64,000 nt of DNA from an uncultured Candidatus Saccharibacteria bacterium (GCA_964363475.1 CAYIII010000002.1:6661-70660), one strand, 5' to 3'; positions 30,294 through 61,749 are shown, counted from the stretch's first letter. The notes: a model not told the origin generated them from the letters alone. Made by a program: numbers and translations.

Positions 30294-30894
30294 AAAAATA
30301 AAATCTTTAATTTTTTATACGGTTTCATTTTTAATGATAATTTTAATCTCTATATTTTTTTCGTCTTTAGTTACTTTAAATGTCATTTATTCTTGCTCTA
30401 ATCAAATAAGAAACGGTTATTTATCGGAATTTTTATGTGGTGATGTTGGGAAGACAGTAGAGGAAATTAAAGAAGATGAGTTTGTTTGGATAAAGCCAGA
30501 AGATATTTTACGAGCGTATTCTAATGATATTTTAGAGATAAATGAAAAAAGCAAAGCCGACAAATTAATTGATGGAGACATTAACACCGGCGCTTATCCC
30601 GGAAACAAGCAATTTGATTACATAGTTGAATTCATAGACGAGTACGAAATAAGTAGAATAGAGCTTATTTGGGGCGGCAGTGGAACGAGCAGACAACATA
30701 TCCAAGAATGGTCTTTAGAGTCCAAGTCCGGTTTATTGGGAGAATGGCAAGTTGTGGCTGGCGAGAAAGAATCTCTGGGCACGGAAAAAACGGTTTTAGA
30801 TATAAATATAAAAGCGGACTCTATAAAAATTCGTGCGAGTTCTCAAGATAATTGGATTGGAATTTTAGAGGTAAAAATCTTAAGAAAATCTTAG
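30280..30894 (+). CDS. Membrane-anchored protein with discoidin (F5/8 type C) carbohydrate-binding-like domain
   Basis: 204 aa; N-terminal TM; LIDGDINTGAYPGNKQFDYIVEFIDEYEISRIELIWGG...WQVVAG resembles the discoidin-domain consensus (xIDGdxxTxW...vDLg...i.xv.l.W). Confidence 0.45.
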   Translation: MKKVRKIKSLIFYTVSFLMIILISIFFSSLVTLNVIYSCSNQIRNGYLSEFLCGDVGKTVEEIKEDEFVWIKPEDILRAYSNDILEINEKSKADKLIDGDINTGAYPGNKQFDYIVEFIDEYEISRIELIWGGSGTSRQHIQEWSLESKSGLLGEWQVVAGEKESLGTEKTVLDINIKADSIKIRASSQDNWIGILEVKILRKS

Positions 30895-32968
30895 ATAAGG
30901 GAATAATCAGTAGGCAAGAAAAAAACAATAAAAATGGCATTAACGGCACGGAATGTCTTCGTTGGTCGACGGCAAAAAGGATAATAGTTGCGAGATGAGT
31001 CCATATAAATCCTCCGGTAATTAAATAATCCTTTCTTTTAGCCATTTTGGAAAATAAACTAGGTTTTAAAATAAATAAAATAGAGCAGACAAGGAATAGG
31101 ACAAACGGAATGGAGAGCCAAAGAGTTGCCTCGCTGGCACTAAAACCCAAAAAATAAAATAATCTTTGCGTTATTAATCTTAAATAGTCCAACGGCTGTT
31201 CTAATATCCACTGGATTGACGGAAAAGCTCTTGAGTCAAAAAAAATATTAGCAAAATTCATTACTGTATCGTAGTTTTTTTCTAAAGGCACATAATTATT
31301 AGGCACATGATTGGCTTGAACAAAATTAATTGTAACCGCTGGTTCTGATATTAAAATAAATTTACCGGTTAATAACCAATTTCTAGCCAAAAATGGTATT
31401 AATGGCAATATTATTCCTGTTACAAAAATAACAAACGGGACTAAAAAATATTTTTTAAAACTAAATATGAACCATAAAAATATAACCAGCATCATCGCCG
31501 CCATATTATTTCTCATTAGAATGCTTAATCCTAAAAATATTCCGGCCGTAAAAAAGTAAATCAAAGCCCCCCACTTTTTATTTTTATTGTCGCTAATTTT
31601 TCTTTCTGCTAGAAAAAGAAACAATATCACTAATGCTATTAGCAGTGTGCCAACAGGAAACATCTGAAACGCTTGTTTAAGCGTAATTGGATTGAGGGCA
31701 ATTAATACTAAAAGGGGTAAAAATATCAAAGAATCTTTTTTTATAAATAATTTACAAATCCAAACGACTATCAATGCTGCCAAAAGAACTGAAATTAATT
31801 GGAAAAATATTATAGGGAATAATGGCTCTCCCATTAGATAATGAGCAATAACTAGGGCGTGATAATATAAAATTTGATAATAATAACCGTAACCTGTTTC
31901 TAGGGCGCTCATACTCCAATTACCTGTTAATTGAACGTGTCTTGCAAATGTCTCATAAGTTAAAGGATCATTGCCGGTAATTAAAACATTAAAATATTCC
32001 GAATTTATTTGACCAAGTAATTTTTTTATCAATAAACCGAAACTCAATAAAAAAGACATAAAAATATAAAAACGCAAAGATAAGAACCATCCCTTCCAAT
32101 TTTCTTTATAAATAAGCAGGGTTAGAATTATTAAAATAAGTAAAAATATTATAATTTTTATAAAATTATCAATAAAATTTACGACATTATCACTATATAT
32201 TTGAAAATTTGAGTATTTTTGAGGGAAAAGACGGGTATTTAAAATATCAAGTTTTAAAAATTGCGTTGTTCCCTGTCCCCTGTGATAAATTAATTCTATC
32301 GGAACTAATTTATCAGTCGCATTTAATTCAATATGCTTATTATTTTTTTGAATGCTTAATTGGTCACTTCCTTGAACATCTAAAATTTTATCTTTATTTA
32401 TATATAATTCCGCCCTATTATCGGTAGATAAATCAATTTTTAAGGCACTTAAACCTGGATTATAAATATAACCTTTCCAGACAACGCTAATAGGAATAGT
32501 ATGGCTTCTTATATTGGGGTCATTAAATTTTGTATTATTATTTAAAAACCAAAACTGAAATGGTTTTTTATGGAAAGAATATCCAATACTTTCAAAATTA
32601 ATTTCCTCATCAATTCTTGTGCCGTCTATTTTGGGATTTATGAATTCGGTGGATTTCTGCAAAACCCCGTTTTCAATTGACGGTTGATAGTAATAACCCA
32701 TTAATCCTTCCGGTAAAGAAATAATTCCGAGCAATATTTTTATTATTATAATCAGCAGTATTATATAACTTGCTGGTCGCAATATTAAAACGTGTTTTTT
32801 TTGAAAATTTTTAAACTGAGGCAAGAAAAAAATAAAAAAAGCAGCTAATAAAACTAAAAAAAACAATTCATGAAATTGGCTTAATGGAATTCCGTCAAAC
32901 CAGCCATTTCTGCCAGAGATAATAAAGAATAAAACACATAAAAGAAAAATCAGCACATTGATAGTCAA
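30821..32968 (-). CDS. Large polytopic membrane protein with PA14-like extracytoplasmic insert (GT-C superfamily, GT39/GT83-like candidate)
   Basis: 715 aa; 2 TM, then a ~180-aa soluble insert (IDGTRIDEEINFESIGYSF...VVWKGYIYNPGLSALKIDLSTDNRAELYINKDKIL, PA14-like), then more than 10 TM helices. Confidence 0.45.
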   Translation of the reverse strand: MTINVLIFLLCVLFFIISGRNGWFDGIPLSQFHELFFLVLLAAFFIFFLPQFKNFQKKHVLILRPASYIILLIIIIKILLGIISLPEGLMGYYYQPSIENGVLQKSTEFINPKIDGTRIDEEINFESIGYSFHKKPFQFWFLNNNTKFNDPNIRSHTIPISVVWKGYIYNPGLSALKIDLSTDNRAELYINKDKILDVQGSDQLSIQKNNKHIELNATDKLVPIELIYHRGQGTTQFLKLDILNTRLFPQKYSNFQIYSDNVVNFIDNFIKIIIFLLILIILTLLIYKENWKGWFLSLRFYIFMSFLLSFGLLIKKLLGQINSEYFNVLITGNDPLTYETFARHVQLTGNWSMSALETGYGYYYQILYYHALVIAHYLMGEPLFPIIFFQLISVLLAALIVVWICKLFIKKDSLIFLPLLVLIALNPITLKQAFQMFPVGTLLIALVILFLFLAERKISDNKNKKWGALIYFFTAGIFLGLSILMRNNMAAMMLVIFLWFIFSFKKYFLVPFVIFVTGIILPLIPFLARNWLLTGKFILISEPAVTINFVQANHVPNNYVPLEKNYDTVMNFANIFFDSRAFPSIQWILEQPLDYLRLITQRLFYFLGFSASEATLWLSIPFVLFLVCSILFILKPSLFSKMAKRKDYLITGGFIWTHLATIILFAVDQRRHSVPLMPFLLFFSCLLIIPLSKIFLRFLPLKFQSNYLENSHEFL

Positions 32969-41237: not shown

Positions 41238-41771
41238 TTACAAGATATTCAATATTTTATCAACAACCTGCTCTTCAGACAAATTGCCGGTAGTTATTCT
41301 TTTTTCAGAATATTTTTTATATAGAGGTAATCTGTAATTATAAACCTTTCTCAATCCCCCTTTTTCTTTGAGGCCGATTACAGCCCCGCGAGTTTTGCCA
41401 TGCGTTGTTCTATCTTCAATAAGAGAAAATGGCGTGTCTATAAAAATAATTAACGCGTTCTTTCTTAATTCTTCCATAGCTTTTTTAGATAAAATAATAC
41501 TCCCTCCCGGGGAGATTACGGTATTTCGAGGTTTATTTTTAAGCAAATTAATCAAGTATTTTTCTTCCAGCTCTATGAATTTTTTCTCCCCGACATCTTT
41601 TATGATTTGGTCAAGATTTTTTTTGCACTTTATTTCCAGCAAATCGTCTATGTCCAGAAATATGAATTTAAGCTTGAAGGCCAGTTTTTTGCCAACCATG
41701 CTCTTTCCCGCTCCAGCCATACCTATTAGGGCGATATTTTGTTTGCTTATAGTATTTTTTTTTATTAGCAT
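41238..41771 (-). CDS. P-loop kinase of the shikimate-kinase/gluconokinase fold (start taken at the internal Met to avoid overlap)
   Basis: Walker A IALIGMAGAGKSMVGKKLA followed by FIFLDIDDLLE, as in AroK-type kinases. Confidence 0.5.
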   Translation of the reverse strand: MLIKKNTISKQNIALIGMAGAGKSMVGKKLAFKLKFIFLDIDDLLEIKCKKNLDQIIKDVGEKKFIELEEKYLINLLKNKPRNTVISPGGSIILSKKAMEELRKNALIIFIDTPFSLIEDRTTHGKTRGAVIGLKEKGGLRKVYNYRLPLYKKYSEKRITTGNLSEEQVVDKILNIL

Positions 41772-41789
41772 TGGTGTTATTAAATAATA

Positions 41790-43028
41790 ATGAATACCAG
41801 CCATTATATAGCATCCTGCAGAATTTGCCAAAACAAAACACTTGTCCCTTTTTTTGACCTTGGCCACCATCCCTTAGCTAATTCTCTTATTAAAAATTTA
41901 GATAAAAAAGAATTTTTTTTTCCTTTATGTTTATGTTGGTGCAATGCTTGTAAGGTTGTTCAATTAAATTATACAGTTGACCCTAAAATTCTTTTTTCAA
42001 ATTATTTTTGGGTTACCGGCACCTCTCAAACGGCTAAAGATTTTTCTTTTAAGTTTTATCAAAAACTAATCAAGCGTTCTGTTAATTCTTCCAAAAATTT
42101 TGTTTTAGAAATAGCGAGCAATGACGGCACTTTTTTAAGGCCTTTCATTAAAAATGGCTATAAGGTTATGGGAGTTGATCCCGCTAAAAATGTTGTGGAG
42201 ATAGCTCAAAAAAACAATATACCCACTATTTGCGGATTTTGGAATAAAAGTTTCGCAATTAAATTTAAAAAGAAATACGGACTAGCACAAATAATCTTTG
42301 CTAGAAATGTTTTGCCTCATGTTAACGATATTCATGGTTTTATAGATGGGGCGGTATATTGTTTAAGCGACGATGGAATATTGGCTATTGAGGCGCATTA
42401 TGCCGGTAATATTTTAGACGGTTTGCATTACGATTCAATTTATCATGAGCATTTATTTTACTTTACTTTAAAATCACTGGAAGGATTATTTAATAAATTT
42501 AATTTATTTATTTTTGACATTGAACCAAGTCCTATTAGTGGAGGAGCCATTATTGTTTATGCTAAAAAGAAAAAAGTAGCGGAAAATAATAATCTTAAAA
42601 AATATAGAAATTATGAATTAAAAAATAAGATTAATAGTTTTTTGAGTTGGAAAAAATTTGCTAATAACGCTTTCAGACATAAAAAAGAATTAATCAATTT
42701 AATGAAAAATATACCTAATAAAGAAAATAATCTAATTGGATGGGGAGCATCTGCCAGAAGCTCCACTCTATTGAATTTTTGTAAAATTGATTCTAAAATA
42801 ATACCTGTTATTGCCGACCAAAATTTTTTAAAGCATAAACATTTTACTGCCGGCTCCCATATTTTGATTGATTCTCCGGATTCAGTTATGAAAAGAAAGC
42901 CGAAATTTGTAATAATTTTAGCGTGGAATTTTACTAAAGAAATAATCGGCATATTAAAAAATAAATATAAATATTCCGGTAAATATATAATTCCATTGCC
43001 GAATAAACCCAAAATTCAATTAAAATAA
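41790..43028 (+). CDS. Nucleotide-sugar C-methyltransferase family protein (Zn-ribbon + class I MTase + C-methyltransferase C-terminal domain; TylCIII/EvaC-like)
   Basis: 412 aa; N-terminus CRICQNKTLVPFFDLGHHPLANS is the hallmark Zn-binding motif of the sugar 3-C-methyltransferase family; central SAM-binding domain. Confidence 0.7.
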   Translation: MNTSHYIASCRICQNKTLVPFFDLGHHPLANSLIKNLDKKEFFFPLCLCWCNACKVVQLNYTVDPKILFSNYFWVTGTSQTAKDFSFKFYQKLIKRSVNSSKNFVLEIASNDGTFLRPFIKNGYKVMGVDPAKNVVEIAQKNNIPTICGFWNKSFAIKFKKKYGLAQIIFARNVLPHVNDIHGFIDGAVYCLSDDGILAIEAHYAGNILDGLHYDSIYHEHLFYFTLKSLEGLFNKFNLFIFDIEPSPISGGAIIVYAKKKKVAENNNLKKYRNYELKNKINSFLSWKKFANNAFRHKKELINLMKNIPNKENNLIGWGASARSSTLLNFCKIDSKIIPVIADQNFLKHKHFTAGSHILIDSPDSVMKRKPKFVIILAWNFTKEIIGILKNKYKYSGKYIIPLPNKPKIQLK

Positions 43029-43029
43029 A

Positions 43030-43557
43030 ATGATTTTTACAAAAACATCAATTAACGGTTTATATGTTATTGAATTAGAACCTAAAATGGATGAACGAGG
43101 TTATTTTTTAAGAGTTTTTTGCCAGGACGAATTCAAAAATGCCGGTCTTAATTATAATATAATAAACACAAATCGTTCTTTCAGCAGATATAAGGGCACT
43201 GTAAGAGGCCTTCATTTTCAAAAAGAGCCAATGGCCGAAGTAAAAATTGTTCAATGTTTAAGGGGTAGGATATTTGATGTGGTTGTTGATTTAAGAACAG
43301 AGTCATCAACCTATAAGCAGTGGTTTGGAATAGAATTAACTGAAAATAATAATAAAATGCTTTATGTGCCCAAGGGATTTGCTCATGGCATACAAACTTT
43401 ATCGGATAATTGTATTTTAGAATATTTTATAAATCAGTTCTATTCTCCACAACATGAAGGTGGATTTCTTTGGAATGACCCGGCTTTTAAAATTATTTGG
43501 CCATTGCCAGTTTCTGTAATGTCAGAAAGAGATAAAAAATGGCGTTTATTTAATTAA
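43030..43557 (+). CDS. NDP-4-keto-6-deoxy-sugar 3,5-epimerase (RmlC/DmhB-like cupin)
   Basis: 175 aa; LYVIELEPKMDERGYFLRVF...VRGLHFQ...FAHGIQTL...YSPQHEGGF. Confidence 0.8.
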   Translation: MIFTKTSINGLYVIELEPKMDERGYFLRVFCQDEFKNAGLNYNIINTNRSFSRYKGTVRGLHFQKEPMAEVKIVQCLRGRIFDVVVDLRTESSTYKQWFGIELTENNNKMLYVPKGFAHGIQTLSDNCILEYFINQFYSPQHEGGFLWNDPAFKIIWPLPVSVMSERDKKWRLFN

Positions 43558-43560
43558 TTT

Positions 43561-44541
43561 ATGATAATATCCAGAACGCCATTGCGTATAAGTTTTGCCG
43601 GCGGTGGTTCTGATTTTAAGTTATTTTATAAAAATGGCTATGGTTCAGTAGTAAGCGCCACTATTAATAAATATGTTTATGTGATTGTAAATAAAAGAAT
43701 TGATAATTTAATTCGTGTTGGTTATTCAAAAACAGAATTTATCAGCGATGTTAATGAGATAGAGCATGATATTATACGGGAGTCATTAAAATTTTTAAAA
43801 ATAGATAAAGCATTAGACATTACCTATATTGGCGATATCTCAATTGGTAATATGGGTACCGGATTGGGGTCCTCCAGCGCTCTTGCCGTTGGCGTTTTAA
43901 ATGCCTTATATGCCTATAAAAACCAAACAGTTTCTCCAGAAAAATTGGCTCAAGACGCTTGTAAGATAGAAATAGATATTCTCAAGAGACCCATTGGCAA
44001 ACAAGACCAATACGCCTCCGCGTATGGCGGATTAAATTTTATAAAATTTAATCCCGATGAAAGCGTAAGCGTAAAATCGCTAAAAATTAAAAAAGAGATC
44101 AGAGAAAAACTTAATAGTAATTTGCTAATGTTTAATACTGGCCTCAATGTCCAATCAAGCGTTGTTTTAAATGAACAAAAAAATAGAATTAAGAATAACT
44201 ACGAACTCTTATCGGGAGTTGTTAAACTATCCCAAGTATTAGAAAAAAATTTAAACAAACAAAATATAAATGATTTTGGACAAATATTACATCGAAATTG
44301 GCTTTTAAAAAAACAATTTGCTGCTAAAGTCAGTAATAGTATCATTGATAGTTATTATAATTTAGCATTGGAAGCAGGCGCTTCCGGCGGTAAAATTTTA
44401 GGTTCGGGGGGCGGTGGTTATTTACTTTTTCATTGCAATTCAGAAAAATCCAAAAAACAAGTAAAGCGGGCGCTTGCTGGTTTGGAGGAATTAAATTTTA
44501 AATTTGCCCCTGTGGGCAGTGAAATAGTTTATTCTGACTAA
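43561..44541 (+). CDS. GHMP-family sugar kinase (HddA/fucokinase-like anomeric kinase)
   Basis: 326 aa; PLRISFAGGGSD (motif I), GTGLGSSSALAV (motif II), GSGGGGY (motif III). Confidence 0.8.
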   Translation: MIISRTPLRISFAGGGSDFKLFYKNGYGSVVSATINKYVYVIVNKRIDNLIRVGYSKTEFISDVNEIEHDIIRESLKFLKIDKALDITYIGDISIGNMGTGLGSSSALAVGVLNALYAYKNQTVSPEKLAQDACKIEIDILKRPIGKQDQYASAYGGLNFIKFNPDESVSVKSLKIKKEIREKLNSNLLMFNTGLNVQSSVVLNEQKNRIKNNYELLSGVVKLSQVLEKNLNKQNINDFGQILHRNWLLKKQFAAKVSNSIIDSYYNLALEAGASGGKILGSGGGGYLLFHCNSEKSKKQVKRALAGLEELNFKFAPVGSEIVYSD

Positions 44542-44545
44542 TAAA

Positions 44546-45538
44546 ATGAAAAAGGAAAAAATTCTTATAACGGGCATAACCGGATTTGTGGGTTCACATA
44601 TGGCGGATTATTTATTGGCAAGGGGCAATGTTGATGTCTATGGGTTAAAAAGATGGAATTTATCACGAATGAGAAATATTCATCACATTCTTGATAAAAT
44701 AAATTTGTTAGATTGCGATATTACCGACCCAATTAGCGCTCGCAGAATAATTAAAGAAATAAAGCCGGACAAAGTTTTTCATTTTGCGGCTGAAAGTTTT
44801 GTAAGTCCATCATGGCATCATCCCAATCATTATATGGATGTTAATTATAAAGGCACGGTTAATTTATTAGATGCTATTTTAGAAACCGGCATTAATCCTA
44901 GATTTCATATTGCCAGTTCTTGTGAAGAATATGGGGAGATAAATAAAAACGAATTACCTATTACAGAAAATACGGTTCTGAGACCAGTTAATCCATATGC
45001 CGTAAGTAAAGTTGCGCAAAATTTTATAGGTTATGTTTATTTTAAGTCCTATGGTTTAAATATTATTAGGACTAGAGCATTTAATCATGAAGGTCCTCGT
45101 AGAGATTATGTTTTTGGAATACCGTGGTATGCCTATCAAATCGCCCTTATAGAGCATGGAAAACAAAAACCAATGGTGCGTGTCGGTTACATTAAGGATA
45201 AAAGAAATTTTACCCACATTAGCGATATCGTAAAGGCGTATTGGTTAGCCATGGAAAAATGTAATTCGGGAGAATTATATTTAATTGGTTCTGACGAAAG
45301 CGCTCATATCCATACTTTTAAAGAAGCTCTCGAAGCACTTATTAAAATGTCATCAGTAAAAAAAATAGAATTTGAACAAGACCCCAAATTTGTAAGGCCT
45401 AGCTCTGTTCCTAATTTAATTGGCAATACTAGCAAGTTTAGAAAACTTACTGGCTGGAAGCCAAAAATAGGATTTAAACAGATTCTTGAAGATACCCTTA
45501 ATTATTGGAGAAGATTCGTAAAAAATGACGCCTATTAA
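44546..45538 (+). CDS. NDP-sugar 4,6-dehydratase (GMD/DmhA-like SDR)
   Basis: 330 aa; ITGITGFVGSHMADYLL...YGLKRWNLSRMRNIHHI...DCDITD follows the GDP-mannose-4,6-dehydratase pattern. Confidence 0.65.
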   Translation: MKKEKILITGITGFVGSHMADYLLARGNVDVYGLKRWNLSRMRNIHHILDKINLLDCDITDPISARRIIKEIKPDKVFHFAAESFVSPSWHHPNHYMDVNYKGTVNLLDAILETGINPRFHIASSCEEYGEINKNELPITENTVLRPVNPYAVSKVAQNFIGYVYFKSYGLNIIRTRAFNHEGPRRDYVFGIPWYAYQIALIEHGKQKPMVRVGYIKDKRNFTHISDIVKAYWLAMEKCNSGELYLIGSDESAHIHTFKEALEALIKMSSVKKIEFEQDPKFVRPSSVPNLIGNTSKFRKLTGWKPKIGFKQILEDTLNYWRRFVKNDAY

Positions 45539-46271
45539 ATTAAAACAAGCGGTAATATTAGCCGGTGGTCTGGGAGTTCGTTTGCGTCCCCTGACAAATA
45601 ATGTTCCAAAGCCGATGGTGAAAGTGAATGAAAGGCCGTTTTTGGAACATCTTTTTGAACTGCTCAAATCAAATGGAATCAGTGAAGTAGTTTTGCTTTT
45701 GGGATATCTGCCAGAAAAATTTATAAATTATTTTGGCGATGGTTCCGGTTTCGGCTTAAAAATAAAATATTCTATTGGGGATGTTGATTGGGAAAGCGGA
45801 ACAAGAATAAAAAAAGCCAGGCATTTATTTGATGACCAATTTCTTTTAATGTATGGCGATATTTATTGGCCGCTTAATCTGAAAAGGATAATGGATTCTT
45901 ATAATAAGATGGGATTGCCGGCTATGATGACTGTTTATAATAATTACAAGAAGGATGGTGAATATAAAATAAATAATGTTGATATTAATGAAAATAGTAT
46001 CATCACTTATTATGGAAATTGTATGGATAAGATTGGGTTTAGCGGTTTAGATATAGGATTTTTTATTTTAAAAAAAGATGTTTTAAAAAGAATGCCAAAT
46101 GATAATTTTAATTTTCAGAATGGTTATTTGCCCAAATTAATTTCTAAAAGACAATTAGCCGCCTATATAACTAATGAACAGTATTGCACCATCACGAACA
46201 TAGATTTTTTTAAAAAAGCCGAGGTTTTTTTAAAGAAAATTAATAAAAAACTGCCCAAAAAGGACAGTTAA
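45525..46271 (+). CDS. Sugar-1-phosphate nucleotidyltransferase (RfbF/HddC-like)
   Basis: 248 aa; AVILAGGLGVRLRPLTNNVPKPMV. Confidence 0.8.
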   Translation: MTPIKLKQAVILAGGLGVRLRPLTNNVPKPMVKVNERPFLEHLFELLKSNGISEVVLLLGYLPEKFINYFGDGSGFGLKIKYSIGDVDWESGTRIKKARHLFDDQFLLMYGDIYWPLNLKRIMDSYNKMGLPAMMTVYNNYKKDGEYKINNVDINENSIITYYGNCMDKIGFSGLDIGFFILKKDVLKRMPNDNFNFQNGYLPKLISKRQLAAYITNEQYCTITNIDFFKKAEVFLKKINKKLPKKDS

Positions 46272-46996
46272 ACTTCTTCATGCTGATGAACAAAATTTGG
46301 CGAATAAAGCAAGGGAATAGATTCCTGCTTTTTGTCATGTCCAAGCAGGCCGGCTAATTTTGTTTCTATTGGAATTACAATAGAATCATAAACTTCTCTA
46401 TGAGTTTTCCCGTGTTTTTCGGCAAAAACTTTTCCCAAATGAAAATATCTTCCCCCTTCCTCAAAATGCGGCTTGAGGTCATCAAACCGTCTTTTATAAG
46501 TAGTAACTTGATAGTTTGAAGTACAACAATCGGCATAGAATACTATCATTGCATCAAGATCGGCATCGCCACTTAGCATCCTTTCGATGCCAATATCGCC
46601 AGTAGTGCTTGCAAGCGAAACAACGTGTTCCGGTATCCCCATTTTTAGCAATAACTCAAAACCCTCTTTATCCGTTTTCCCCCCTTCTTGCTCTTGTCGT
46701 TTAAACCAATCATGCAACAACAATGCTCGAACAACTGAATTTAGTGAAACGCCATGTCTTTTGGTATTTAAAGCCAAATTGTAACCCAATGTGGCAGAAA
46801 CAGCCATATGGGCCACAACATTAAGCCAAGATCGTTTTAAACGATAATTATCATCCCATTGCGGATGCAAAAGACCGCCAACCTCCCAAATACGCAATAT
46901 AAGATCGTCAAAACAATGATCTGGAAAATACTCCATGCATCTTGATATAACAGCGTTTATTTCACAATTTTGAGCGAAATAATCGCATGCGTTCAT
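46268..46996 (-). CDS. HD-domain phosphohydrolase-like protein (only opposite-strand gene inside the sugar-nucleotide module)
   Basis: 242 aa; H...HD...D arrangement (VAHMAV ... LLLHDWFK ... D). Locally higher GC than its neighbours. Confidence 0.5.
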   Translation of the reverse strand: MNACDYFAQNCEINAVISRCMEYFPDHCFDDLILRIWEVGGLLHPQWDDNYRLKRSWLNVVAHMAVSATLGYNLALNTKRHGVSLNSVVRALLLHDWFKRQEQEGGKTDKEGFELLLKMGIPEHVVSLASTTGDIGIERMLSGDADLDAMIVFYADCCTSNYQVTTYKRRFDDLKPHFEEGGRYFHLGKVFAEKHGKTHREVYDSIVIPIETKLAGLLGHDKKQESIPLLYSPNFVHQHEEV

Positions 46997-47065
46997 TTGC
47001 GCGCCACTCCTTTCAAGGAACTTCTTGCTAGGAGCACTGTAAGGTATTACAATCTACTGGTCAAT

Positions 47066-47941
47066 ATGAGAATTTTTGTTACAGGCGGTACTGGTTTTAT
47101 TGGTAGCCATGTAATTGATTTATTGAAAAAGGAAAAGCAGGAACTATTGTTATTGTCTAGAAAAAATAATAAAAGACCCTTTATTAAAGGCAATCTCAAT
47201 TCTATTCAAAAATGGAAAGATAAGTTGATTGAGTTTAGACCTGAAGCGACTATACATTTAGCTTGGGAAAATACTCCTCATGGTAGCGCTTCCAAACATA
47301 GCTCTTTGGACAGCGCTGGTAACTTAACTTATGGACTTAATTTAATTAAAGCCCTTACTGAAACTGGTTGTAAAAAAATTTTAGCAACAGGAAGCTGTTG
47401 GGAATATGGCAGGTCTTTTGGAAAATTAGAAGAAATCAGTTCGGTAGATTATTCTAATTCCTTTGTTATTGCCAAAAATTGCTTACATTTTTTGGGTAGA
47501 AAGATAGCTGAAGAAAATAATATGCAGTTTATTTGGACAAGACTTTTTTTTGTTTATGGTCCGGGACAAAGACGTCAATCTATAATTCCTTATCTTTTTG
47601 ATTGTTATAATAGAAATTTAAAGCCGGATATTAAAAATCCATTTAATAAAAATGACTTTGTTTATGTAGAAGATGTAGTAGAGGCAATCTGGGAAATATT
47701 AAGAAATAATAATTCAAGCTCCATTTATAACATTGGCACAGGACATTCGGTGTCAATTGAAAAAATTGCCAATATTATCTATGGTACTAGCAAGAAAGAA
47801 TTATTAAATAAAGGTTCCCAAAATAAACCTACTTGTGATTTTTATGCAAACATTGCCAAAATTAAAAAAGATATCGGATGGTACCCCAAAATTAGCATTG
47901 AAGCAGGAATTAAAGAGCTCAAAGAAATTAACGGTATCTGA
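47066..47941 (+). CDS. SDR-family NAD(P)-dependent nucleotide-sugar reductase/epimerase
   Basis: Start taken at MRIFVTGGTGFIGSHV. The longer ORF beginning at 46970 overlaps the HD gene on the opposite strand. Confidence 0.65.
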   Translation: MRIFVTGGTGFIGSHVIDLLKKEKQELLLLSRKNNKRPFIKGNLNSIQKWKDKLIEFRPEATIHLAWENTPHGSASKHSSLDSAGNLTYGLNLIKALTETGCKKILATGSCWEYGRSFGKLEEISSVDYSNSFVIAKNCLHFLGRKIAEENNMQFIWTRLFFVYGPGQRRQSIIPYLFDCYNRNLKPDIKNPFNKNDFVYVEDVVEAIWEILRNNNSSSIYNIGTGHSVSIEKIANIIYGTSKKELLNKGSQNKPTCDFYANIAKIKKDIGWYPKISIEAGIKELKEINGI

Positions 47942-49631
47942 ATATATAATTTCTCTTATAGAAAAAACGAGTGTTGATTTAGTGCCTGTTATTACTGGTG
48001 GGGCTATTATGAAATTAGTAGATGATATTGGGCGGAATTCTAAATTAAAATATTTATGTCCAAATCATGAACAAGCTTTGGCTATGATTGTTGATGCTTA
48101 CGCTAGGATTAAAGGATTTGGAGTGGGATTGGTGACTAGCGGACCCGGTGGCACTAATTTAATAACCGGCATTTGCTGTTCTTATTATGATTCTATTCCT
48201 TGTCTTTTTATTTCAGGACAAGTAGGCATGTTTCATATGAAAGGCAAACGAGTTATCCGCCAACGCGGCTTTCAAGAAACTGATATTATAAGCGTTGTTA
48301 AATCAATTACTAAACACGCCGTCTTATTAGATAATCCGGAAAAGACACGCTATGAGTTTGAAAAAGCTGTTTACATGGCTAAATCAGGAAGACCTGGGCC
48401 AGTTTTAATTGACCTTCCCTACAACATTCAACGGGCACTTATTGACCCTGATAAACTTATCGGCTTTATTCCAGAAAAGTGGTTCGACCACGCTCACCAC
48501 AAGAAGAAAAATGATTCCGAAAAGCAATTAGAAAAAGCAAGTAGGGTAATTATAAAAGAATTAAAAAATGCTAAAAAACCCCTTATTTTAGTTGGTGGTG
48601 GCGTTCGTTTGGCAAATCAAGTAGAAACTATTAATAAGGTAGTTAGCTATCTTCAAATCCCAGTTGTTACCACTTGGGGAGCTTTGGATAATTTTGACTG
48701 GAATCATAAATTATATGGAGGTAATATCGGCAGATTAGGGAATCCGTCGGCTTTAAAAATGATTGATGAATGCGATTTACTGTTGGCTTTAGGCACAAGA
48801 TTTACCACTAAAGCTATTATTAATGAAAAAGAATTTTCTAAACAAGCAAAAATTATTTCCGTTGATGTAGATAATGGAGAGCTAAACGAAGGATTGATTT
48901 CTCCCCAAATTAAAATTCAGGCAGAATTACAAGATTTTTTGCCTAACTTTCTAAATTTAGTAAAAAAACAAAAAATTACTTTAAATATTAATGAATGGAG
49001 AAAAAGGGTTAATGAGTTAAAGATTAATTTTTTTCATATTAAATCACCGTCCGCTGATGATAAGAATTATGTTAATCCGTATTATTTTATGGAAATTTTA
49101 TCAGAATTATTACAGCATGATGATATAATTGTCGCCGATTGCGGCACAAATCTTACTTGGGCGGTTCAAGGATATAAACCTAAAAAGGGGCAAAGATTTA
49201 TATCTGCTTGGGGTAATTCGCCAATGGGTTATGCTTTGCCCGCGGCTATTGGCGCTTATTATGCGAATAAAAATGTTAATGTTGTTGTCACTACGGGAGA
49301 CGGCGGTTTTCAAATGAATATTCAGGAATTACAAACAATAGCCGTTAATAAAATACCGGTTAAGGTTTTTATACTTAATAATCAGTGTTACGCGAATATT
49401 AAATTTCCTGCTCGAGAACAATTTAATGGAAGGACTTTTGCCACCGAATCAAGTAACGGATATGAAGCGCCCGATTTTGTTAAAATTGCCACAGCTTATG
49501 GTTTAAAATCTTTAAGAATAAAATTTAATAAAAACTTAAAAGAGAAAATAAAAAGTATATTATCAAAAAAAGAACCGATAATTATTGATGTTATGTGCGA
49601 TCCAGAACTTTATGTTTTTGATAATGTATGA
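47844..49631 (+). CDS. Thiamine-diphosphate-dependent enzyme of the acetolactate-synthase large-subunit family (YerE-like candidate)
   Basis: About 595 aa; three-domain ALS-like layout; ThDP motif TTGDGGFQMNIQELQ...VFILNNQCY (GDG...NN). Start is uncertain (GTG at 47835 or ATG at 47844), with about 100 nt overlap with the preceding gene. Confidence 0.75.
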   Translation: MQTLPKLKKISDGTPKLALKQELKSSKKLTVSEYIISLIEKTSVDLVPVITGGAIMKLVDDIGRNSKLKYLCPNHEQALAMIVDAYARIKGFGVGLVTSGPGGTNLITGICCSYYDSIPCLFISGQVGMFHMKGKRVIRQRGFQETDIISVVKSITKHAVLLDNPEKTRYEFEKAVYMAKSGRPGPVLIDLPYNIQRALIDPDKLIGFIPEKWFDHAHHKKKNDSEKQLEKASRVIIKELKNAKKPLILVGGGVRLANQVETINKVVSYLQIPVVTTWGALDNFDWNHKLYGGNIGRLGNPSALKMIDECDLLLALGTRFTTKAIINEKEFSKQAKIISVDVDNGELNEGLISPQIKIQAELQDFLPNFLNLVKKQKITLNINEWRKRVNELKINFFHIKSPSADDKNYVNPYYFMEILSELLQHDDIIVADCGTNLTWAVQGYKPKKGQRFISAWGNSPMGYALPAAIGAYYANKNVNVVVTTGDGGFQMNIQELQTIAVNKIPVKVFILNNQCYANIKFPAREQFNGRTFATESSNGYEAPDFVKIATAYGLKSLRIKFNKNLKEKIKSILSKKEPIIIDVMCDPELYVFDNV

Positions 49632-50479
49632 AAGTCATTATTACCGGTTCAGAAGGTTTTATTGGTAAGGAGCTTTCAAAACAATGCCGTAAACTCGGTC
49701 ATAAAGTTGTTGGTATAGATTTAATAAATGGTTTAGATATAAGATCTGCTGATATAGCAGACCACTTGCCTATTAACTCGGACGTACTAATTCATCTCGC
49801 CGCTCTTGCTCAACCCAAACAGTGTTTGAATAATGCGAAAAGTTGTTTTGATAATAACATTTTAGGAACAGTTAATATTTTTGAGGCCGCTATGATAAAA
49901 AAAGTAAAACATTTTATTTTTGCTTCCAGTGAATGGATTTATGGAGATTTTAATTCTAATAAGGAACTTTTAGAAGATTCTTTTATTGATTTAAAATCTA
50001 TTAATAGCGAATACGCCCTATCTAAACTTGTCTCCGAATGTTATCTAAAACAGTATTATCTTAAATATTTAATACCGACTACTATTTTACGCTTTAGTAT
50101 AGTTTATGGACCAGACAATAAACACCAAACCGCAGTTGAATCTTTATTTAATTCTATTAAAATAGGTAATAAAGTTAGCGTTGGTTCTCTAAAAACAGCT
50201 AGAAGATTTATCCACGTGGAAGATGTTGCTTCGGGGATTATTACCAGTTTTTCAAAAAAAAGGTTGGGATTTGAAATTTATAATTTATCATATAATAAAT
50301 TAATTGCTTTAAAAGAAATTATAGAAACTAGCGCCAAGCTTTTAAGAGTTAAACCTACGATAATAGAATTAGACCCAAACAACTTTATTATTAGAAATCC
50401 ATCTAATAATAAATTTAAGAAAATATTTAAATGGAAACCAAAAATTGATTTAAAAACAGGATTAAAAACTTTAAATTAA
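49628..50479 (+). CDS. SDR-family NAD-dependent epimerase/reductase
   Basis: 283 aa; ITGSEGFIGKEL, YALSK (YxxxK). Confidence 0.7.
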   Translation: MKVIITGSEGFIGKELSKQCRKLGHKVVGIDLINGLDIRSADIADHLPINSDVLIHLAALAQPKQCLNNAKSCFDNNILGTVNIFEAAMIKKVKHFIFASSEWIYGDFNSNKELLEDSFIDLKSINSEYALSKLVSECYLKQYYLKYLIPTTILRFSIVYGPDNKHQTAVESLFNSIKIGNKVSVGSLKTARRFIHVEDVASGIITSFSKKRLGFEIYNLSYNKLIALKEIIETSAKLLRVKPTIIELDPNNFIIRNPSNNKFKKIFKWKPKIDLKTGLKTLN

Positions 50480-50487
50480 CATTTAAA

Positions 50488-51636
50488 ATGAAATATAAAT
50501 TTAGTAAAAGATTGTGTGCTTTATGCGGATCCAATAGAAAATTTAAAAATCTATTTACGCAAAGATCCGAACGCCTAAAAGTTAATTATGTTGTTTCGGA
50601 ATGTTTATCTTGCGGATTTATTCATCAAAATCCCGCATGGGAACAGAAATTTTATAATGATCTTTATGCGGATCTTATTTATGACCCTACCAATCATAAA
50701 TTTTATCCGGCTCAAGTTAAAAGATATAAGGGGGTGGCAGATATTATTGCCACGCTTTTCCCTTCTAATAAGATAGAAAGATTGTTAGATTTTGGTTGTT
50801 ATGACGGTTCTTTTATTGAGTGGCTAAAAAAATTTACCAATTGGGGAAAGCGTATTCAATTAGTCGGTTATGACATTCACTTAAAAAATATAGCGAATAA
50901 AAGTGGTTTTTATAATTCTTTAGATTTTTTAACAAAAAAAGAGGGTGGGTTTGATGTTGTGGTTTTAAATCATGTTTTAGAGCATATATATAATCCATTA
51001 GAAACTTTAAAGTTTATTAAAAATAATTTATTGAGAAACAATGGATTTATAATTATAGAGGTTCCCGATGTTTCTTTTTTAAGGGAAGATGATGTTGTCC
51101 CTGCTTATATCCAGCATATTAATTATTTTACTCCGCATACCATAACTAGATTGAGCAACAAGGCCAATTTATCAACGCAATATTTAAAAACTTTTAAAAA
51201 CTTTGATGTAAATCGAGAACCCTACTCCCCCACTTTGTTAGTTGTTTTTCAAAATGATTTAAATTATTTAGCCGATGGACAATCGCTTAAATCAGCTTTT
51301 AAATTAAATGAAAGCAAATTAAAAGGAAAACTCTCTAAAATTAAAAAAAATACCTCTTTGGGCGTAATTGGCTGTGGAGATGCATTGTTTACTGTTTTTA
51401 ATTTTATAAAAAAAGAATTTAAAAATATAACTGTAAATTCTTTATTTGATAATAATAAAAATATTTGGAATCAAAAAATGTTCGGAATGCTCGTTCAGCC
51501 GGTAGAAAAAATAAAGGAAGGAAAATGCGATTTATTTCTAATATGCACCCTAAACAAACACAATGCTGAGCAAATTTTGTCTCAAATATCCGAATATACT
51601 TCTCCCAATAAAATTATTACGGTCTTAAATATTTGA
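50488..51636 (+). CDS. Zn-ribbon-containing SAM-dependent methyltransferase with extra C-terminal Rossmann-like domain
   Basis: 382 aa; CALCGS...CLSCGF (2x CxxC); LLDFGCYDGSF motif I; VVVLNHVLEHI. Confidence 0.55.
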   Translation: MKYKFSKRLCALCGSNRKFKNLFTQRSERLKVNYVVSECLSCGFIHQNPAWEQKFYNDLYADLIYDPTNHKFYPAQVKRYKGVADIIATLFPSNKIERLLDFGCYDGSFIEWLKKFTNWGKRIQLVGYDIHLKNIANKSGFYNSLDFLTKKEGGFDVVVLNHVLEHIYNPLETLKFIKNNLLRNNGFIIIEVPDVSFLREDDVVPAYIQHINYFTPHTITRLSNKANLSTQYLKTFKNFDVNREPYSPTLLVVFQNDLNYLADGQSLKSAFKLNESKLKGKLSKIKKNTSLGVIGCGDALFTVFNFIKKEFKNITVNSLFDNNKNIWNQKMFGMLVQPVEKIKEGKCDLFLICTLNKHNAEQILSQISEYTSPNKIITVLNI

Positions 51637-52379
51637 TTATAAATATGGACCCAATTAAAGCGTTTCAATTAGAAAGAGAAGGTAACATAAAAAAATTAGG
51701 AAAAAATAAGGAGCTTAAAAAAATAGCCGAAAATTTTATTATAAAATCCAGCAAGATTAAATATGTTTATAATTTCAATTGGCTAGGCAGGCCGATTATC
51801 CAGTTTCCACAGGAGATAGTCGCTATACAAGAAATTATTTGGTCCGTAAAGCCAGATTTAATTATTGAAACAGGTATTGCGCATGGCGGGTCAATTATTC
51901 TATCAGCATCCATATTAGAATTAATTGGCAAAAACGGACTTGTGGTAGGAATTGACATTGATATTAGAAAACATAATAAGAAACTAATTAAAGCGCACTT
52001 TTTGTTTAAAAGGATTCGGATGTTAGAGGGCTCATCTATTGATATGGACATATATAATCAAGCAAAAAAAATTACTCAAGACAAAAAGAAGGTTATGGTT
52101 TTTTTAGATTCCAATCATACTTATAATCATGTTTGGCAAGAATTGTGTTTATATTCTAAATTAGTAAGTAAAAATAGTTATATTGTAGTTTTTGATACTG
52201 TTACCGAAATAATACCAAAAGAAATTTCTAAAAATAGACCTTGGGGGAAAGGTAATAATCCAAAAACAGCTGTTGATAGGTTTTTAAGAGAGAATAAAAA
52301 TTTTGTAGTAGACAAAAATATTAATAATAAATTATTGATTACTACCAATCCCGGCGGATATTTAAAAAAAATAAGCTAA
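51633..52379 (+). CDS. CmcI/'cephalosporin hydroxylase'-family SAM methyltransferase (sugar O-methyltransferase type)
   Basis: 248 aa; PDLIIETGIAHGGSIILSA...VVGIDIDIRKHN. Confidence 0.65.
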   Translation: MIINMDPIKAFQLEREGNIKKLGKNKELKKIAENFIIKSSKIKYVYNFNWLGRPIIQFPQEIVAIQEIIWSVKPDLIIETGIAHGGSIILSASILELIGKNGLVVGIDIDIRKHNKKLIKAHFLFKRIRMLEGSSIDMDIYNQAKKITQDKKKVMVFLDSNHTYNHVWQELCLYSKLVSKNSYIVVFDTVTEIIPKEISKNRPWGKGNNPKTAVDRFLRENKNFVVDKNINNKLLITTNPGGYLKKIS

Positions 52380-59400: not shown

Positions 59401-60760
59401 CTTTCACTTTCTATCTTCAAGGAACTTTTTTACCACTGATGTGTTTAGCGCGCTAAAACAAAATAAAAAAATTAACCTAATAGTATTTGTTCCTAAAAGT
59501 AAATTAGATCTTTTACGAAATAATTATGAACATGAAAATGTCAAATTAGTTGGCATAGACGAACAACTTATTTTAGGCAGAAACTTTTCTAAATTTAAAT
59601 GGTTGAATTTTTTTTTAATCCCGACGCGCGCAGTAAGATTTAGAGCTCAGGAAAAATGGAATAGAGAAAGAACTTTTACGGGTCTTATAGAATTAGGGTT
59701 ATCTTATTTTTTGTCATTATTTTTATCAAAATTTAAGTTTGCAAGAAATATAGTAAGATATTTAGATAAAAAATTTGATAGATCGCCAATGTTGTTAGAA
59801 TATTTTAACAAATATAGACCAGAATATATTCTAGTAACTGACGTTTTTAATAATGCAGACATCTGTTTTCTAAAAGAAGCAGAGGTCAATAATGTGTTTT
59901 CTATGGGATTAGTTCGTTCTTGGGACAACACCACTACAAAGGGATTAATGAGGATAATTACTAATAAATTAATCGTTAACAATGAAATCATAAAAAATGA
60001 GGCCGTAAAATTTCATGATGTAAATCCTAGAGATATTTTTATTAGTGGAATTCCTCAATTTGATATATATTTTCGCAACGCATATAACACGCGTGAAGAG
60101 TTTTTTAAAGAAATTGGAGCCGATATTAATAAAAGATTAATATTATTTGCGCCCGCCGGATCTATTTTGTCAGATACAGATTGGCAGTTATGCCAAATAT
60201 TAAAAGATGGCTTGCGTAAAAAAATATTACCGAGCAACATTCAATTCTTAATTAGAAAACATCCTTTAGGGCATCCAGGGTTTTTAGAAAAATTTATAAC
60301 TGATAAAAATTTTTTAATAGAATGGCCCGGCACAAAACCCGAAAATAGCGACCATCCTAAAATAACAGAATTAATTAATAAGGACCAGAAACATTTAGTT
60401 AATTCTTTACACTATTCTGAAATGATAATTTATGTTAATTCTACGATTGGCATTGACTCTCTACCTTTTAATAAGCCACAGATAATGATTGAGTTTGATG
60501 GATGGGAAAAGAAACGTTATATTGAAAGCGTTAAACATTATCACGACGAGGAGCATATGCAGAAATATTTGCAAACAGGAGCAGTAAAAATAGCGAAAAC
60601 ACCAGAAGAGTTATTGCTTCTAATTAATATTTTCCTTAATAATCCCAAAATAGATGAAGAAAAAAGAAAGACGGCTATTAAAGAACAATTATATTATTCT
60701 GATGACCAATGTGGCAAAAGAGTTGCGAATTTCGTTTTAAAACAAATCAATAATTTATGA
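59381..60760 (+). CDS. GT-B-like transferase, possibly a TagB/TagF-type glycosyl/glycerophosphotransferase
   Basis: 459 aa; C-terminal MIIYVNSTIGIDSLPFNKPQIMIEFD resembles the LITDYSS...kP motif of CDP-glycerol glycerophosphotransferases; assignment is weak. Confidence 0.35.
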   Translation: MNLFVASFHFLSSRNFFTTDVFSALKQNKKINLIVFVPKSKLDLLRNNYEHENVKLVGIDEQLILGRNFSKFKWLNFFLIPTRAVRFRAQEKWNRERTFTGLIELGLSYFLSLFLSKFKFARNIVRYLDKKFDRSPMLLEYFNKYRPEYILVTDVFNNADICFLKEAEVNNVFSMGLVRSWDNTTTKGLMRIITNKLIVNNEIIKNEAVKFHDVNPRDIFISGIPQFDIYFRNAYNTREEFFKEIGADINKRLILFAPAGSILSDTDWQLCQILKDGLRKKILPSNIQFLIRKHPLGHPGFLEKFITDKNFLIEWPGTKPENSDHPKITELINKDQKHLVNSLHYSEMIIYVNSTIGIDSLPFNKPQIMIEFDGWEKKRYIESVKHYHDEEHMQKYLQTGAVKIAKTPEELLLLINIFLNNPKIDEEKRKTAIKEQLYYSDDQCGKRVANFVLKQINNL

Positions 60761-61749
60761 AAAAAAATAAAGTAGCTTTAATAACGGGAATTAATGGACA
60801 AGACGGTTCTTATTTAGCGGAATTATTATTATTAAAGAATTATGAAGTGCACGGCATTATTCGCAGGTCTTCAGTAATAAATACCGGACTCATAAAACAT
60901 ATAATGCCAAAATTATTTTTGCATTACGGCGACTTAATAGACGCCAATACAATAAGAAAATTAGTTTATAAAATCAAACCGAATGAAATCTACAATTTAG
61001 CGGCGCAATCACAAGTAAGAGTAAGTTTTGATATTCCCGAATATACCCTCAACGTTACTGGTTTGGGGCCGACAAGAATATTGGAAGCTATTAAGGATTT
61101 TGAGGACGGTGGCAACGAGAAAATAAAATTTTACCAAGCCAGTTCCAGCGAGATGTTTGGCAATACTTCGCCTCCGCAAAATGAAAAATCTTTATTTTTC
61201 CCGAGAAGCCCGTACGGATGCGCAAAACTCTTGGGTTATCATTCAACTTGTAATTATAGAGACGGATTTAATATTTTTGCGGTAAATGGGATTCTTTTTA
61301 ATCATGAATCCCCTCGTCGCGGCGAAGAATTCGTTACCAGAAAAATAACTTCCGGCGTAGCCAAAATTAAGGCCGGTCTAATGAAAAAAATTTCTTTGGG
61401 TAATTTAAGCGCCAAACGCGACTGGGGTTACGCTCCTGAATATATGGAGGCCGTTTGGTTGATGATGCAACAAGATAAGCCGGATGATTATGTTATTGGT
61501 ACTGGAGAAAGCCACTCAATTGAAGAATTTCTAGATGAATCATTTAAGGCGGTTGGCATTGATAAGTGGAAAAAATATGTTGAAATTAATTCGTCTTATT
61601 TCAGACCGACGGATGTTCATAATTTAGTTGCTGATTATAGTAAAGCCCAAAAAAAACTTGGCTGGTGTCCCAAAGTTAAATTTCATGATTTAGTAAAAAT
61701 TATGGTGGAAGCTGATTTAAAACATATAAAAAATGATAAAACTGGTTAA
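60757..61749 (+). CDS. gmd: GDP-mannose 4,6-dehydratase
   Basis: 330 aa; ALITGINGQDGSYLAELLLLKNYEVHGIIRRSS...LHYGDLID...NLAAQSQV...FNHESPRRG: canonical Gmd motifs. Confidence 0.9.
   Translation: MKKNKVALITGINGQDGSYLAELLLLKNYEVHGIIRRSSVINTGLIKHIMPKLFLHYGDLIDANTIRKLVYKIKPNEIYNLAAQSQVRVSFDIPEYTLNVTGLGPTRILEAIKDFEDGGNEKIKFYQASSSEMFGNTSPPQNEKSLFFPRSPYGCAKLLGYHSTCNYRDGFNIFAVNGILFNHESPRRGEEFVTRKITSGVAKIKAGLMKKISLGNLSAKRDWGYAPEYMEAVWLMMQQDKPDDYVIGTGESHSIEEFLDESFKAVGIDKWKKYVEINSSYFRPTDVHNLVADYSKAQKKLGWCPKVKFHDLVKIMVEADLKHIKNDKTG

Follow-up and report, generated by a model that had tools for sequence, protein, structure and literature searches.

The window analyzed here is a stretch of 64,000 nucleotides recorded from an uncultured Candidatus Saccharibacteria bacterium (GCA_964363475.1 CAYIII010000002.1:6661-70660), and we mainly focused on a gene module at positions 41238-50479 and the genes directly downstream. 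The module encodes an HddA-like GHMP kinase, an HddC-like nucleotidyltransferase, a GMD-family short-chain dehydrogenase/reductase (SDR), an RmlC-type epimerase, a sugar C-methyltransferase, a thiamine diphosphate (ThDP) enzyme resembling YerE, and two further SDRs, here called SDR1 and SDR2. We interpret the region as the sugar-nucleotide part of a Patescibacteria surface-glycan cluster. It would provide one or two C-branched deoxy sugars, probably carried on GDP and most likely derived from a heptose, and we give this interpretation a probability of about 0.55. It builds on domain and family identities, the packing of the operons, the phylogenetic placement of the ThDP enzyme, and the conservation of the gene set in relatives.

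Gene boundaries were taken from gene calls on identical public contigs (Table 1). All open reading frames named in the first-pass annotation are present, and their domains were confirmed by Pfam, NCBIfam, and PDB sequence searches, with weak support for the HD gene. The genes form two plus-strand operons. Operon 1 spans 41790-46271 and operon 2 starts at 47066, with the minus-strand gene at 46268-46996 between them. After SDR2, operon 2 continues with a methyltransferase, a CmcI-like methyltransferase, and then three GT2 genes. The intergenic spacing ranges from −44 to +24 nt within both operons, indicating that the arrangement is not due to chance. The SDR gene at 44546 overlaps the nucleotidyltransferase gene by 14 nt, and the ThDP gene overlaps the SDR genes on both sides (by 4 nt in the case of SDR2).

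Table 1. Genes of the sugar-nucleotide module and the adjoining part of operon 2, in their order along the window.
Gene product	Position	Strand	Domain evidence and remarks
SKI/shikimate-kinase-family P-loop kinase	41238-41771	-	PF01202, E 1.3e-32; divergently transcribed
Sugar C-methyltransferase, TylC3/TcaB9 type	41790-43028	+	PF08421, PF13489, PF08484
RmlC-type 3,5- (or 3- or 5-) epimerase of 4-keto sugar nucleotides	43030-43557	+	PF00908, TIGR01221
HddA-like GHMP kinase	43582-44541	+	PF00288, PF08544
GMD-family SDR, proposed GDP-heptose (or GDP-hexose) 4,6-dehydratase	44546-45538	+	PF16363, 4e-79
HddC-like sugar-1-phosphate nucleotidyl- (probably guanylyl-) transferase	45525-46271	+	PF00483
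Divergent HD-superfamily-like protein, 242 aa	46268-46996	-	no Pfam match
SDR1, extended SDR without catalytic Tyr	47066-47941	+	PF01370, 3.9e-37
YerE-like ThDP carboligase, three domains	47898-49631	+	PF02776, PF00205, PF02775
SDR2, extended SDR, Ser/Tyr/Lys intact	49628-50479	+	PF01370, 4e-36
Methyltransferase: Zn-ribbon, class I methyltransferase, C-terminal domain	50488-51636	+	PF13489, 3.8e-22
CmcI/rhamnosyl O-methyltransferase-like	51645-52379	+	PF04989, 2.2e-82

The ThDP enzyme had been likened to YerE, and the clade profile, the phylogenetic tree, and the gene context all place it with YerE-like enzymes rather than acetolactate synthases. The HEQ and GDGGFQMN motifs are visible in its sequence, and the clade alignment shows no variation at E58 or at G467-D468-G469. 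The protein has thousands of homologues. The scores of a separate set (43-58% identity) are 500-730 bits and greatly exceed those with acetohydroxyacid synthase (AHAS), and its few named members come from Giovannoni-, Yanofsky-, and Doudnabacteria. The profile of this clade scores 472 bits with the structure 8rph, 447 bits with 5ahk, which we take to be PpYerE, and at most 410 bits with AHAS structures. The 8rph entry is JanthE, a YerE-like enzyme (PMC12188165), and a structure of PpYerE has been reported (PMC12247030). The window protein is about 30-35% identical to the characterized YerE-like members, and forms its own subclade with the relatives at 43-58%. In a neighbor-joining tree of 97 sequences, JanthE and PpYerE share one clade with the window protein, its close relatives, and almost every locus in a non-ilv context (100/100 bootstraps). 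The 44 enzymes in ilv contexts lie outside this clade, and two loci with no detected ilv neighbor group with AHAS.

The gene context separates the two families in a similar way. A scan of genome contigs with the ThDP clade alignment used patterns that are common to AHAS, and no match among those listed exceeds 42% identity, so that the scan served to separate sugar from ilv contexts. Among the 80 loci listed from species-representative genomes, none of those scoring 286 bits or more against the window protein has ilv neighbors, and almost all of those at 283 bits or less have ilvH, ilvC, or ilvD (nine are without). The 64-kb window contains no homologue of ilvH/N/M, ilvC, ilvD, or ilvE. The top NCBIfam models of the protein are AHAS models (TIGR00118, 399.5 bits against a cut-off of 538.35), and it stays under the cut-off of every AHAS equivalog. 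By analogy with YerE, we propose that the enzyme adds an acyl branch, probably acetyl from pyruvate, to a 4-keto sugar nucleotide. Its PF00205 middle domain possibly retains FAD binding, judging from the sequence.

The module recurs in close relatives. Our close-clade sample consists of five long contigs (L004, L005, L089, L090, and L091) carrying ThDP homologues at 53-58% identity; L007, L008, L012, and L214 are likewise labels of compared contigs, and L214 extends the window. A GHMP kinase (37-40% identical to that of the window) and an HddC-like transferase (37-49%) are present in all five contexts. SDR1 orthologues occur in four of the five and SDR2 orthologues also in four, and mostly one or both adjoin the ThDP gene. 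An RmlC-like gene was called in 4/5 contexts and a three-domain C-methyltransferase in 4/5, the L004 sequence ending at the kinase. In L005, L007, L089, and L090, the nucleotidyltransferase orthologues (40-49% identity) carry a fused GmhB-like HAD phosphatase, which the window protein does not have. The HAD fusions of L005, L089, and L007 have their best matches in heptose 1,7-bisphosphate phosphatases (GmhB; NF006506, 133-160 bits against a cut-off of 178). L005, L089, and L090 each also have a SIS protein with GmhA as the best match, and the presence of GmhA together with the GmhB fusion in these three contigs points to a GDP-heptose scaffold.

These partner genes are absent from the wider YerE-like family, as seen in about 140 loci listed from genome and metagenome scans (28-46% identity). 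Therefore, the link to heptose-type activation is specific to the close subclade. The metagenome scan used the pattern RQxGFQExD(8)TK, and the matches listed comprise the broad YerE-like family plus two short close-clade contigs. A sixth locus, L007, was reached through the 242-aa HD-like protein and holds an orthologous module, with identities of 69% for the dehydratase, 54% for the C-methyltransferase, 44% for the transferase-GmhB fusion, 43% for SDR2, and 41% for the HD-like protein. In place of the YerE-like gene, it has an E1-type ThDP alpha gene (PF00676) and a putative beta gene (weak PF02780) at L007:5624-7485. The E1-type pairs AviB1/B2 and Pau11/12 install C-4 acetyl branches (PMC4753412), and we read the replacement in L007 as independent support for a branching function. 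L007 also holds two tandem C-methyltransferases and two RmlC-like genes. A Myxococcaceae metagenome-assembled genome (L012, 10001-20419) has a more distant YerE-like gene (38%), and within 10 kb of it lie genes for a C-methyltransferase (33%), an RmlC-like protein (45%), and a nucleotidyltransferase (29%). Therefore, the pairing of ThDP branching with C-methylation is not confined to Patescibacteria.

The activation genes of operon 1 resemble those of GDP-heptose synthesis. The solved structures closest to the GHMP kinase are heptose kinases (3k85, 1e-39; WcbL, 4usk/4usm; 4n3o), and its matches to galactokinase and fucokinase are far weaker. The PDB entry closest to the nucleotidyltransferase is Yersinia pseudotuberculosis HddC (5xhw, 5e-23). 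The comparison of the pair with HddA/HddC made in the first-pass annotation thus agrees with the closest solved and profile matches, though these are under the equivalog cut-offs. HddA is a D-glycero-D-manno-heptose 7-phosphate kinase acting at C1, and it belongs to a de novo route together with GmhA and GmhB. The earlier idea of a salvage-type anomeric kinase does not fit this route, since HddA acts on heptose 7-phosphate. With this substrate, the route also needs GmhA and GmhB.

The SDR at 44546 is a proposed dehydratase. Its best PDB matches are the reductase RMD (2pk3, 225 bits, 1.6e-65) and the Campylobacter jejuni GDP-heptose 4,6-dehydratase (7us5, 190 bits, 5e-55), and it scores 163.7 on the GMD model TIGR01472, under the cut-off of 415. 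The motifs ASSCEEYG (S-x-E), PYAVSK (YxxxK), and FNHEGPRRD align with GMD and 7us5, whereas RMD 2pk3 has NHIGPGQ. Because S-x-E, YxxxK, and NHEGPRR are common to GMD and 7us5, the dehydratase assignment is favored, with an RMD/DmhB-type 4-reductase as the alternative.

The C-methyltransferase has the complete domain set of the TylCIII/EvaC type to which it had been compared. It includes the Zn-binding N-terminal domain (PF08421, 2.8e-18), the S-adenosylmethionine (SAM) domain (PF13489, 9e-15), and the C-terminal C-methyltransferase domain (PF08484, 1e-36). Its closest PDB entries, TylC3 (4rv9, 3.8e-59) and TcaB9 (3ndi), align over the full length, and the sequence shows CxxC...CxCxxC and IYHEHLFYF motifs. 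Orthologues with 49-54% identity are present in L005 and L007. By analogy with TylC3 and TcaB9, methylation would take place at C3 of a 4-keto sugar, with C5 as the alternative; the nucleotide carrier would probably be GDP. The RmlC-like protein (PF00908, 1.2e-62) passes the cut-off of TIGR01221 (179.8 against 155.75) and has orthologues with 50-53% identity in L005, L089, and L091.

The SDRs flanking the ThDP gene differ in their active sites. SDR1 has Phe or Leu in the column of the catalytic Tyr ([F/L]xxxK, not YxxxK) in all five sequences aligned, whose Gly-rich NAD motif does not vary, nor do Ser110, Glu113, and Lys137. Its orthologues are 36-43% identical (L004:9128-9985; L005:5284-6135, minus strand; L089:7479-8366; L091:9195-10052), and those in L004 and L091 are directly upstream of the ThDP gene. 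The best solved relative of SDR1 is TunA (3vps, 73 bits), a 5,6-dehydratase. From these residues, the activity of SDR1 may be non-canonical. The best solved relatives of SDR1 and SDR2 score 73-82 bits, which is uninformative for assigning function. SDR2 orthologues (43-46% identity) are found in L004, L005, L090, and L091, and also in L007. SDR2 is translationally coupled to the ThDP gene and is proposed, by analogy, to be a YerF-type branch-carbonyl reductase.

Two methyltransferase genes follow SDR2. The protein of 50488-51636 has a CxxC...CxxC N-terminus, a class I methyltransferase domain, and a C-terminal domain, and shows IQH where sugar C-methyltransferases have HEH. It matches the C-methyltransferase of L090 (L090:4769-6076) weakly and collinearly (E 2e-5, 20% over 300 aa), and that of the window weakly (E 2e-4). 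This makes it a candidate for a second sugar methyltransferase, divergent in sequence and acting on C or O. The CmcI-like protein likely performs a sugar O-methylation step, and in both L007 and L090 an orthologue of it (41-45% identity) adjoins the module.

These assignments can be arranged into a pathway, for which we infer every substrate, the step order, the regiochemistry, and whether both branches are on one sugar or two. The HddA-like kinase would phosphorylate D-glycero-D-manno-heptose 7-phosphate at C1, a GmhB-type phosphatase encoded outside this region would take off the 7-phosphate, and the HddC-like transferase would form GDP-heptose. The SDR at 44546 would then convert GDP-heptose into a 6-deoxy-4-keto intermediate. 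A 4,6-dehydratase yields an NDP-6-deoxy-4-keto sugar, and its keto group acidifies C3 and C5, allowing SAM-dependent C-methylation and RmlC-type epimerization. The C-methyltransferase would act next to the 4-keto carbon, and the RmlC-like enzyme would epimerize the sugar. In YerE, a ThDP-bound acyl anion equivalent attacks the keto carbon, and a reductase then turns the acetyl branch into 1-hydroxyethyl (PMC9306805). The acyl anion equivalent of the YerE-like enzyme would similarly attack C4, giving a 4-C-acetyl tertiary alcohol with pyruvate as the donor. We take pyruvate, which gives a C2 branch, as the default donor because no aldolase genes like erwI/erwJ were found nearby. SDR2 would reduce the branch carbonyl, as proposed for YerF. 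The downstream methyltransferases would O-methylate the sugar, and the glycosyltransferases after them would install it.

Several observations weigh against this interpretation. The kinase scores only 156.3 bits on its top NCBIfam model, HddA, far under the equivalog cut-off of 600. The transferase scores 104.9 on its top model, HddC, against a cut-off of 300, and 100.3 on the ManC-type (mannose-1-phosphate guanylyltransferase) model. Neither GmhA nor GmhB was found in the window or in the 10 kb past its end (about 74 kb), so the heptose precursor route is incomplete locally. The nearest solved relative of the SDR at 44546 is the reductase RMD, not a dehydratase. An orthologue of this SDR was found only in L007, upstream of the nucleotidyltransferase-GmhB fusion; four of the five close contexts lack it, and the other compared contexts have a different 345-aa SDR at the equivalent position. 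In L005 and L007, the C-methyltransferase adjoins a true GMD and a GDP-fucose-synthase-like gene, which fits a GDP-6-deoxyhexose (virenose-type) route as well as a heptose one. Further along the window, overlapping genes at 60757-63840 encode a GMD (TIGR01472, 457 against 415), an RfbH/ColD-like pyridoxal phosphate enzyme at 61733 (192 bits), and a GDP-fucose-synthase-like SDR at 62878 (271 bits). From their sequences, the three look like a colitose-type 3,6-dideoxyhexose route, which could supply a 4-keto-3,6-dideoxy acceptor, the known YerE substrate type. A possible hexose route for the C-methyltransferase and an alternative acceptor for the ThDP enzyme are why we allow for either one doubly branched heptose or two branched sugars.

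The two operons may accordingly have separate products, a possibility that we consider real but clearly short of even odds. Operon 1 would make a virenose- or evalose-type 6-deoxy sugar bearing a C-methyl group, and the SDR at 44546 would serve as a dehydratase or as an RMD/DmhB-type 4-reductase. Operon 2 would make a yersiniose-like 4-C-branched sugar from a shared 4-keto intermediate, or from a GDP-4-keto-3,6-dideoxy sugar supplied by the GMD and ColD/RfbH-like pair at 60757-62899. The division of the operons by a minus-strand gene agrees with this, as do the RMD top score of the SDR at 44546 and the C-methyltransferase neighbors in L005 and L007, which resemble the proposed GDP virenose route (PMC3539893). 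The scores of the distal genes also fit: that at 60757 passes the GMD cut-off, that at 61733 is best matched by RfbH/E1, and that at 62878 by GDP-fucose synthase. In addition, the characterized YerE-type acceptors are all 3,6-dideoxy-4-keto sugars (PMC9306805). However, the C-methyltransferase, RmlC, kinase, and transferase genes co-occur with the ThDP and SDR genes in the complete close contexts, which suggests one pathway. Moreover, the close contexts have no close orthologue of the ColD/RfbH-like protein, the best matches being 26-30% identical, and one 4-keto intermediate is chemically able to take both branchings in turn.

It is unlikely that the kinase and the nucleotidyltransferase salvage a hexose such as mannose, with GDP-mannose feeding both 4,6-dehydratases and no heptose involved. 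Such a route would explain why no GmhA, GmhB, ManB, or other nucleotidyltransferase appears in the scanned open reading frames of the cluster and its extension, and the true GMD needs GDP-mannose. The near-equal scores of the transferase on the HddC and mannose-1-phosphate guanylyltransferase models (105 and 100 bits) and its missing GmhB fusion point in the same direction. However, among both solved structures and profiles, the kinase has all its best matches in heptose kinases, with galactokinase and fucokinase much weaker, and the orthologous kinase/transferase pairs in L005, L089, and L090 accompany GmhA-like and GmhB-like genes. The gmhA and gmhB genes of the window's host may lie elsewhere in its genome. 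An acetolactate synthase large subunit that serves branched-chain amino acid biosynthesis and is placed in the glycan cluster by chance would share the three-domain layout, the top-scoring AHAS models, and 29% identity with Escherichia coli IlvI, but the failed AHAS cut-offs, the clade profile and tree, the missing ilv genes, and the overlap with two SDR genes in a sugar operon effectively refute it.

The GDP-heptose-based interpretation extends to a more specific and more tentative proposal, which we hold with much less confidence. The product could be a GDP 6-deoxyheptose with two branches, one of them a C-methyl and the other a 4-C-(1-hydroxyethyl) or a related acyl group. It would be an undescribed sugar on the surface of Patescibacteria and some other uncultivated carriers of the module, made by a distinct subclade of YerE-like enzymes with a new, Tyr-less SDR as obligatory partner.

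The setting of the module is consistent with a surface-glycan cluster. Public contigs from well H51 (Hainich groundwater, 0.1 µm fraction) match the window sequence, and the parent contig is 71.6 kb long. The host is a Patescibacteria member: for the DnaE protein of its contig, every one of the nearest named relatives (62-64% identity) belongs to the Patescibacteria/Parcubacteria, with Harrisonbacteria and Liptonbacteria among them. The left part of the window is housekeeping, with DnaE, GatB, a class II aminoacyl-tRNA synthetase, a penicillin-binding protein, and a sigma factor. The G+C content falls from 0.37-0.41 in this part (1-24000) to 0.28-0.34 in the glycan cluster (26000-64000). The cluster is a single long one that begins at about 26148 and fills the rest of the window, at least 38 kb of this contig of a small-genome bacterium, with about a dozen or more glycosyltransferases and several methyltransferases. 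Two open reading frames in or beside the cluster, at 30821-32968 and 24798-26198 (both minus strand, 715 and 466 aa), have no Pfam match at E≤0.001. Genes for GT11, GT2, a CMP-sugar synthetase-like protein, a radical SAM protein, and NeuB extend the cluster beyond the window. The GT11 fucosyltransferase-family gene (L214:13068-13904) is located just past the window, after the three genes of 60757-63840. The stretch L214:14664-20140, located 7 kb past the end of the window, encodes the CMP-sugar synthetase-like protein (PF02348), the radical SAM protein of 583 aa, an adh_short SDR, NeuB, and a methyltransferase, which suggests a nonulosonic acid pathway.

The two minus-strand genes of the module were also considered as pathway members. 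The SKI-family kinase is below the cut-off of all NCBIfam equivalogs. It scores highest on an exception model for 'homoserine kinase' (129.9 bits, under the cut-off of 197), and shikimate kinase models score at most 92 bits. No homologue was found in L004-L007 or L089-L091, and a P-loop protein in L089 is unrelated. This shikimate-kinase-like protein was listed in the first-pass toolkit, but we do not count it as a pathway member because it is under the equivalog cut-offs and has no counterpart in the related modules.

The HD-like protein of the window has no Pfam match, and two of its four homologues match PF01966 at E 0.0037. H63, H95-D96, and D156 (H...HD...D) are invariant among its four aligned homologues. 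The AlphaFold2 model has a predicted local distance difference test score of 85, and its top Foldseek matches are HD hydrolases such as YpgQ, although these are weak (E 0.04, probability 0.99, TM score 0.34-0.43). The family is rare: of 1.84 billion cluster representatives, 232 match at E≤1e-3. The gene is found in three sugar clusters, including L005 and L007, and also in L008, which has no sugar genes. In L007 (8963-10813) and L008 (8929-10741), it is divergently paired with a PP2C/SpoIIE-like phosphatase gene on otherwise unrelated contigs, which hints at a separate two-gene unit. We also considered the HD-like protein as a substitute for GmhB. This is unsupported, as L005 and L007 carry both the HAD fusion and the HD-like gene. 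Taken as a whole, the toolkit for an activated, tailored deoxy sugar stands in its core enzymes and in the YerE likeness. The salvage activation, the P-loop kinase, and the claimed rarity of the sugars fall away, and the link to the HD-like protein is inconsistent.

Branched-chain sugars had been described as rare outside antibiotic producers and a few O-antigens. This is overstated, since YerE-like enzymes are widespread, with more than 200 predicted according to the review PMC12247030, and with that many clusters branched sugars would be less rare than assumed. Our literature search found no account of this gene combination or of Patescibacteria heptose glycans; the survey of more than 200 YerE-like clusters cited in PMC12247030 lay outside that search. 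Each enzyme type is known by itself. What we did not find described is the combination of a YerE-like subclade with heptose-type activation, a TylC3-type C-methyltransferase, and two SDRs, recurring in Patescibacteria-type contigs.

C-branched sugars are chemically unusual, and few enzyme types make them. Their tertiary alcohols make them valued biocatalysis targets. If our proposal is true, the known acceptors of YerE-like enzymes would include GDP-heptoses in addition to CDP-3,6-dideoxyhexoses. The proposal would also let the surface chemistry of Patescibacteria, which are host-contact-dependent bacteria, be predicted in concrete terms that can be tested. The Tyr-less SDR and the rare HD-like protein are candidates for new enzyme activities.

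The closest known system for operon 2 is the yersiniose A pathway of Y. pseudotuberculosis (YerE and YerF, with ErwE/ErwF, MMAR_2332, PpYerE, and JanthE as related systems). The window likewise has a single-chain, AHAS-like three-domain ThDP enzyme in a polysaccharide cluster, and a putative NAD(P)-type reductase gene directly follows the ThDP gene, as in YerE/YerF (PMC9306805). In contrast, its neighbors are GDP-heptose-type activation genes, not CDP-3,6-dideoxyhexose (ddh/asc) genes, and the conserved set includes two SDRs, one of them without the catalytic Tyr, and a C-methyltransferase. The AHAS large subunits (IlvB/IlvG/IlvI) have the same fold and domain order as the ThDP enzyme, but the latter is under their equivalog cut-offs, has no regulatory subunit or ilv context, and belongs to a separate clade. 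The E1-type AviB1/AviB2 and Pau11/Pau12 perform the same proposed step, and an E1 alpha/beta pair takes the place of the YerE-like gene in L007. These enzymes come from actinomycete antibiotic clusters (PMC4753412), whereas the window uses the single-chain YerE type.

Operon 1 can be compared with the GDP-6-deoxy-heptose pathways, namely GmhA/HddA/GmhB/HddC with DmhA/DmhB in Y. pseudotuberculosis, and the heptose dehydratase, epimerases, and reductases of the C. jejuni capsule. It shares with them the HddA-like kinase, the HddC-like transferase, a GMD-family SDR resembling C. jejuni 7us5, and an RmlC-type cupin epimerase. It differs in having no local GmhA/GmhB and in matches far under the equivalog cut-offs. 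The known pathways end in a simple reduction, without C-methylation or ThDP branching. The window C-methyltransferase has the full three-domain architecture of TylC3 and TcaB9 and matches them over the full length. As in the proposed GDP virenose route of Coxiella burnetii, it is next to a (here proposed) 4,6-dehydratase and an epimerase (PMC3539893). The characterized TylC3 and TcaB9 enzymes come from antibiotic producers and have dTDP-2,6-dideoxy or amino sugars as substrates, whereas the window enzyme likely acts on a GDP-bound heptose for a Patescibacteria surface glycan.

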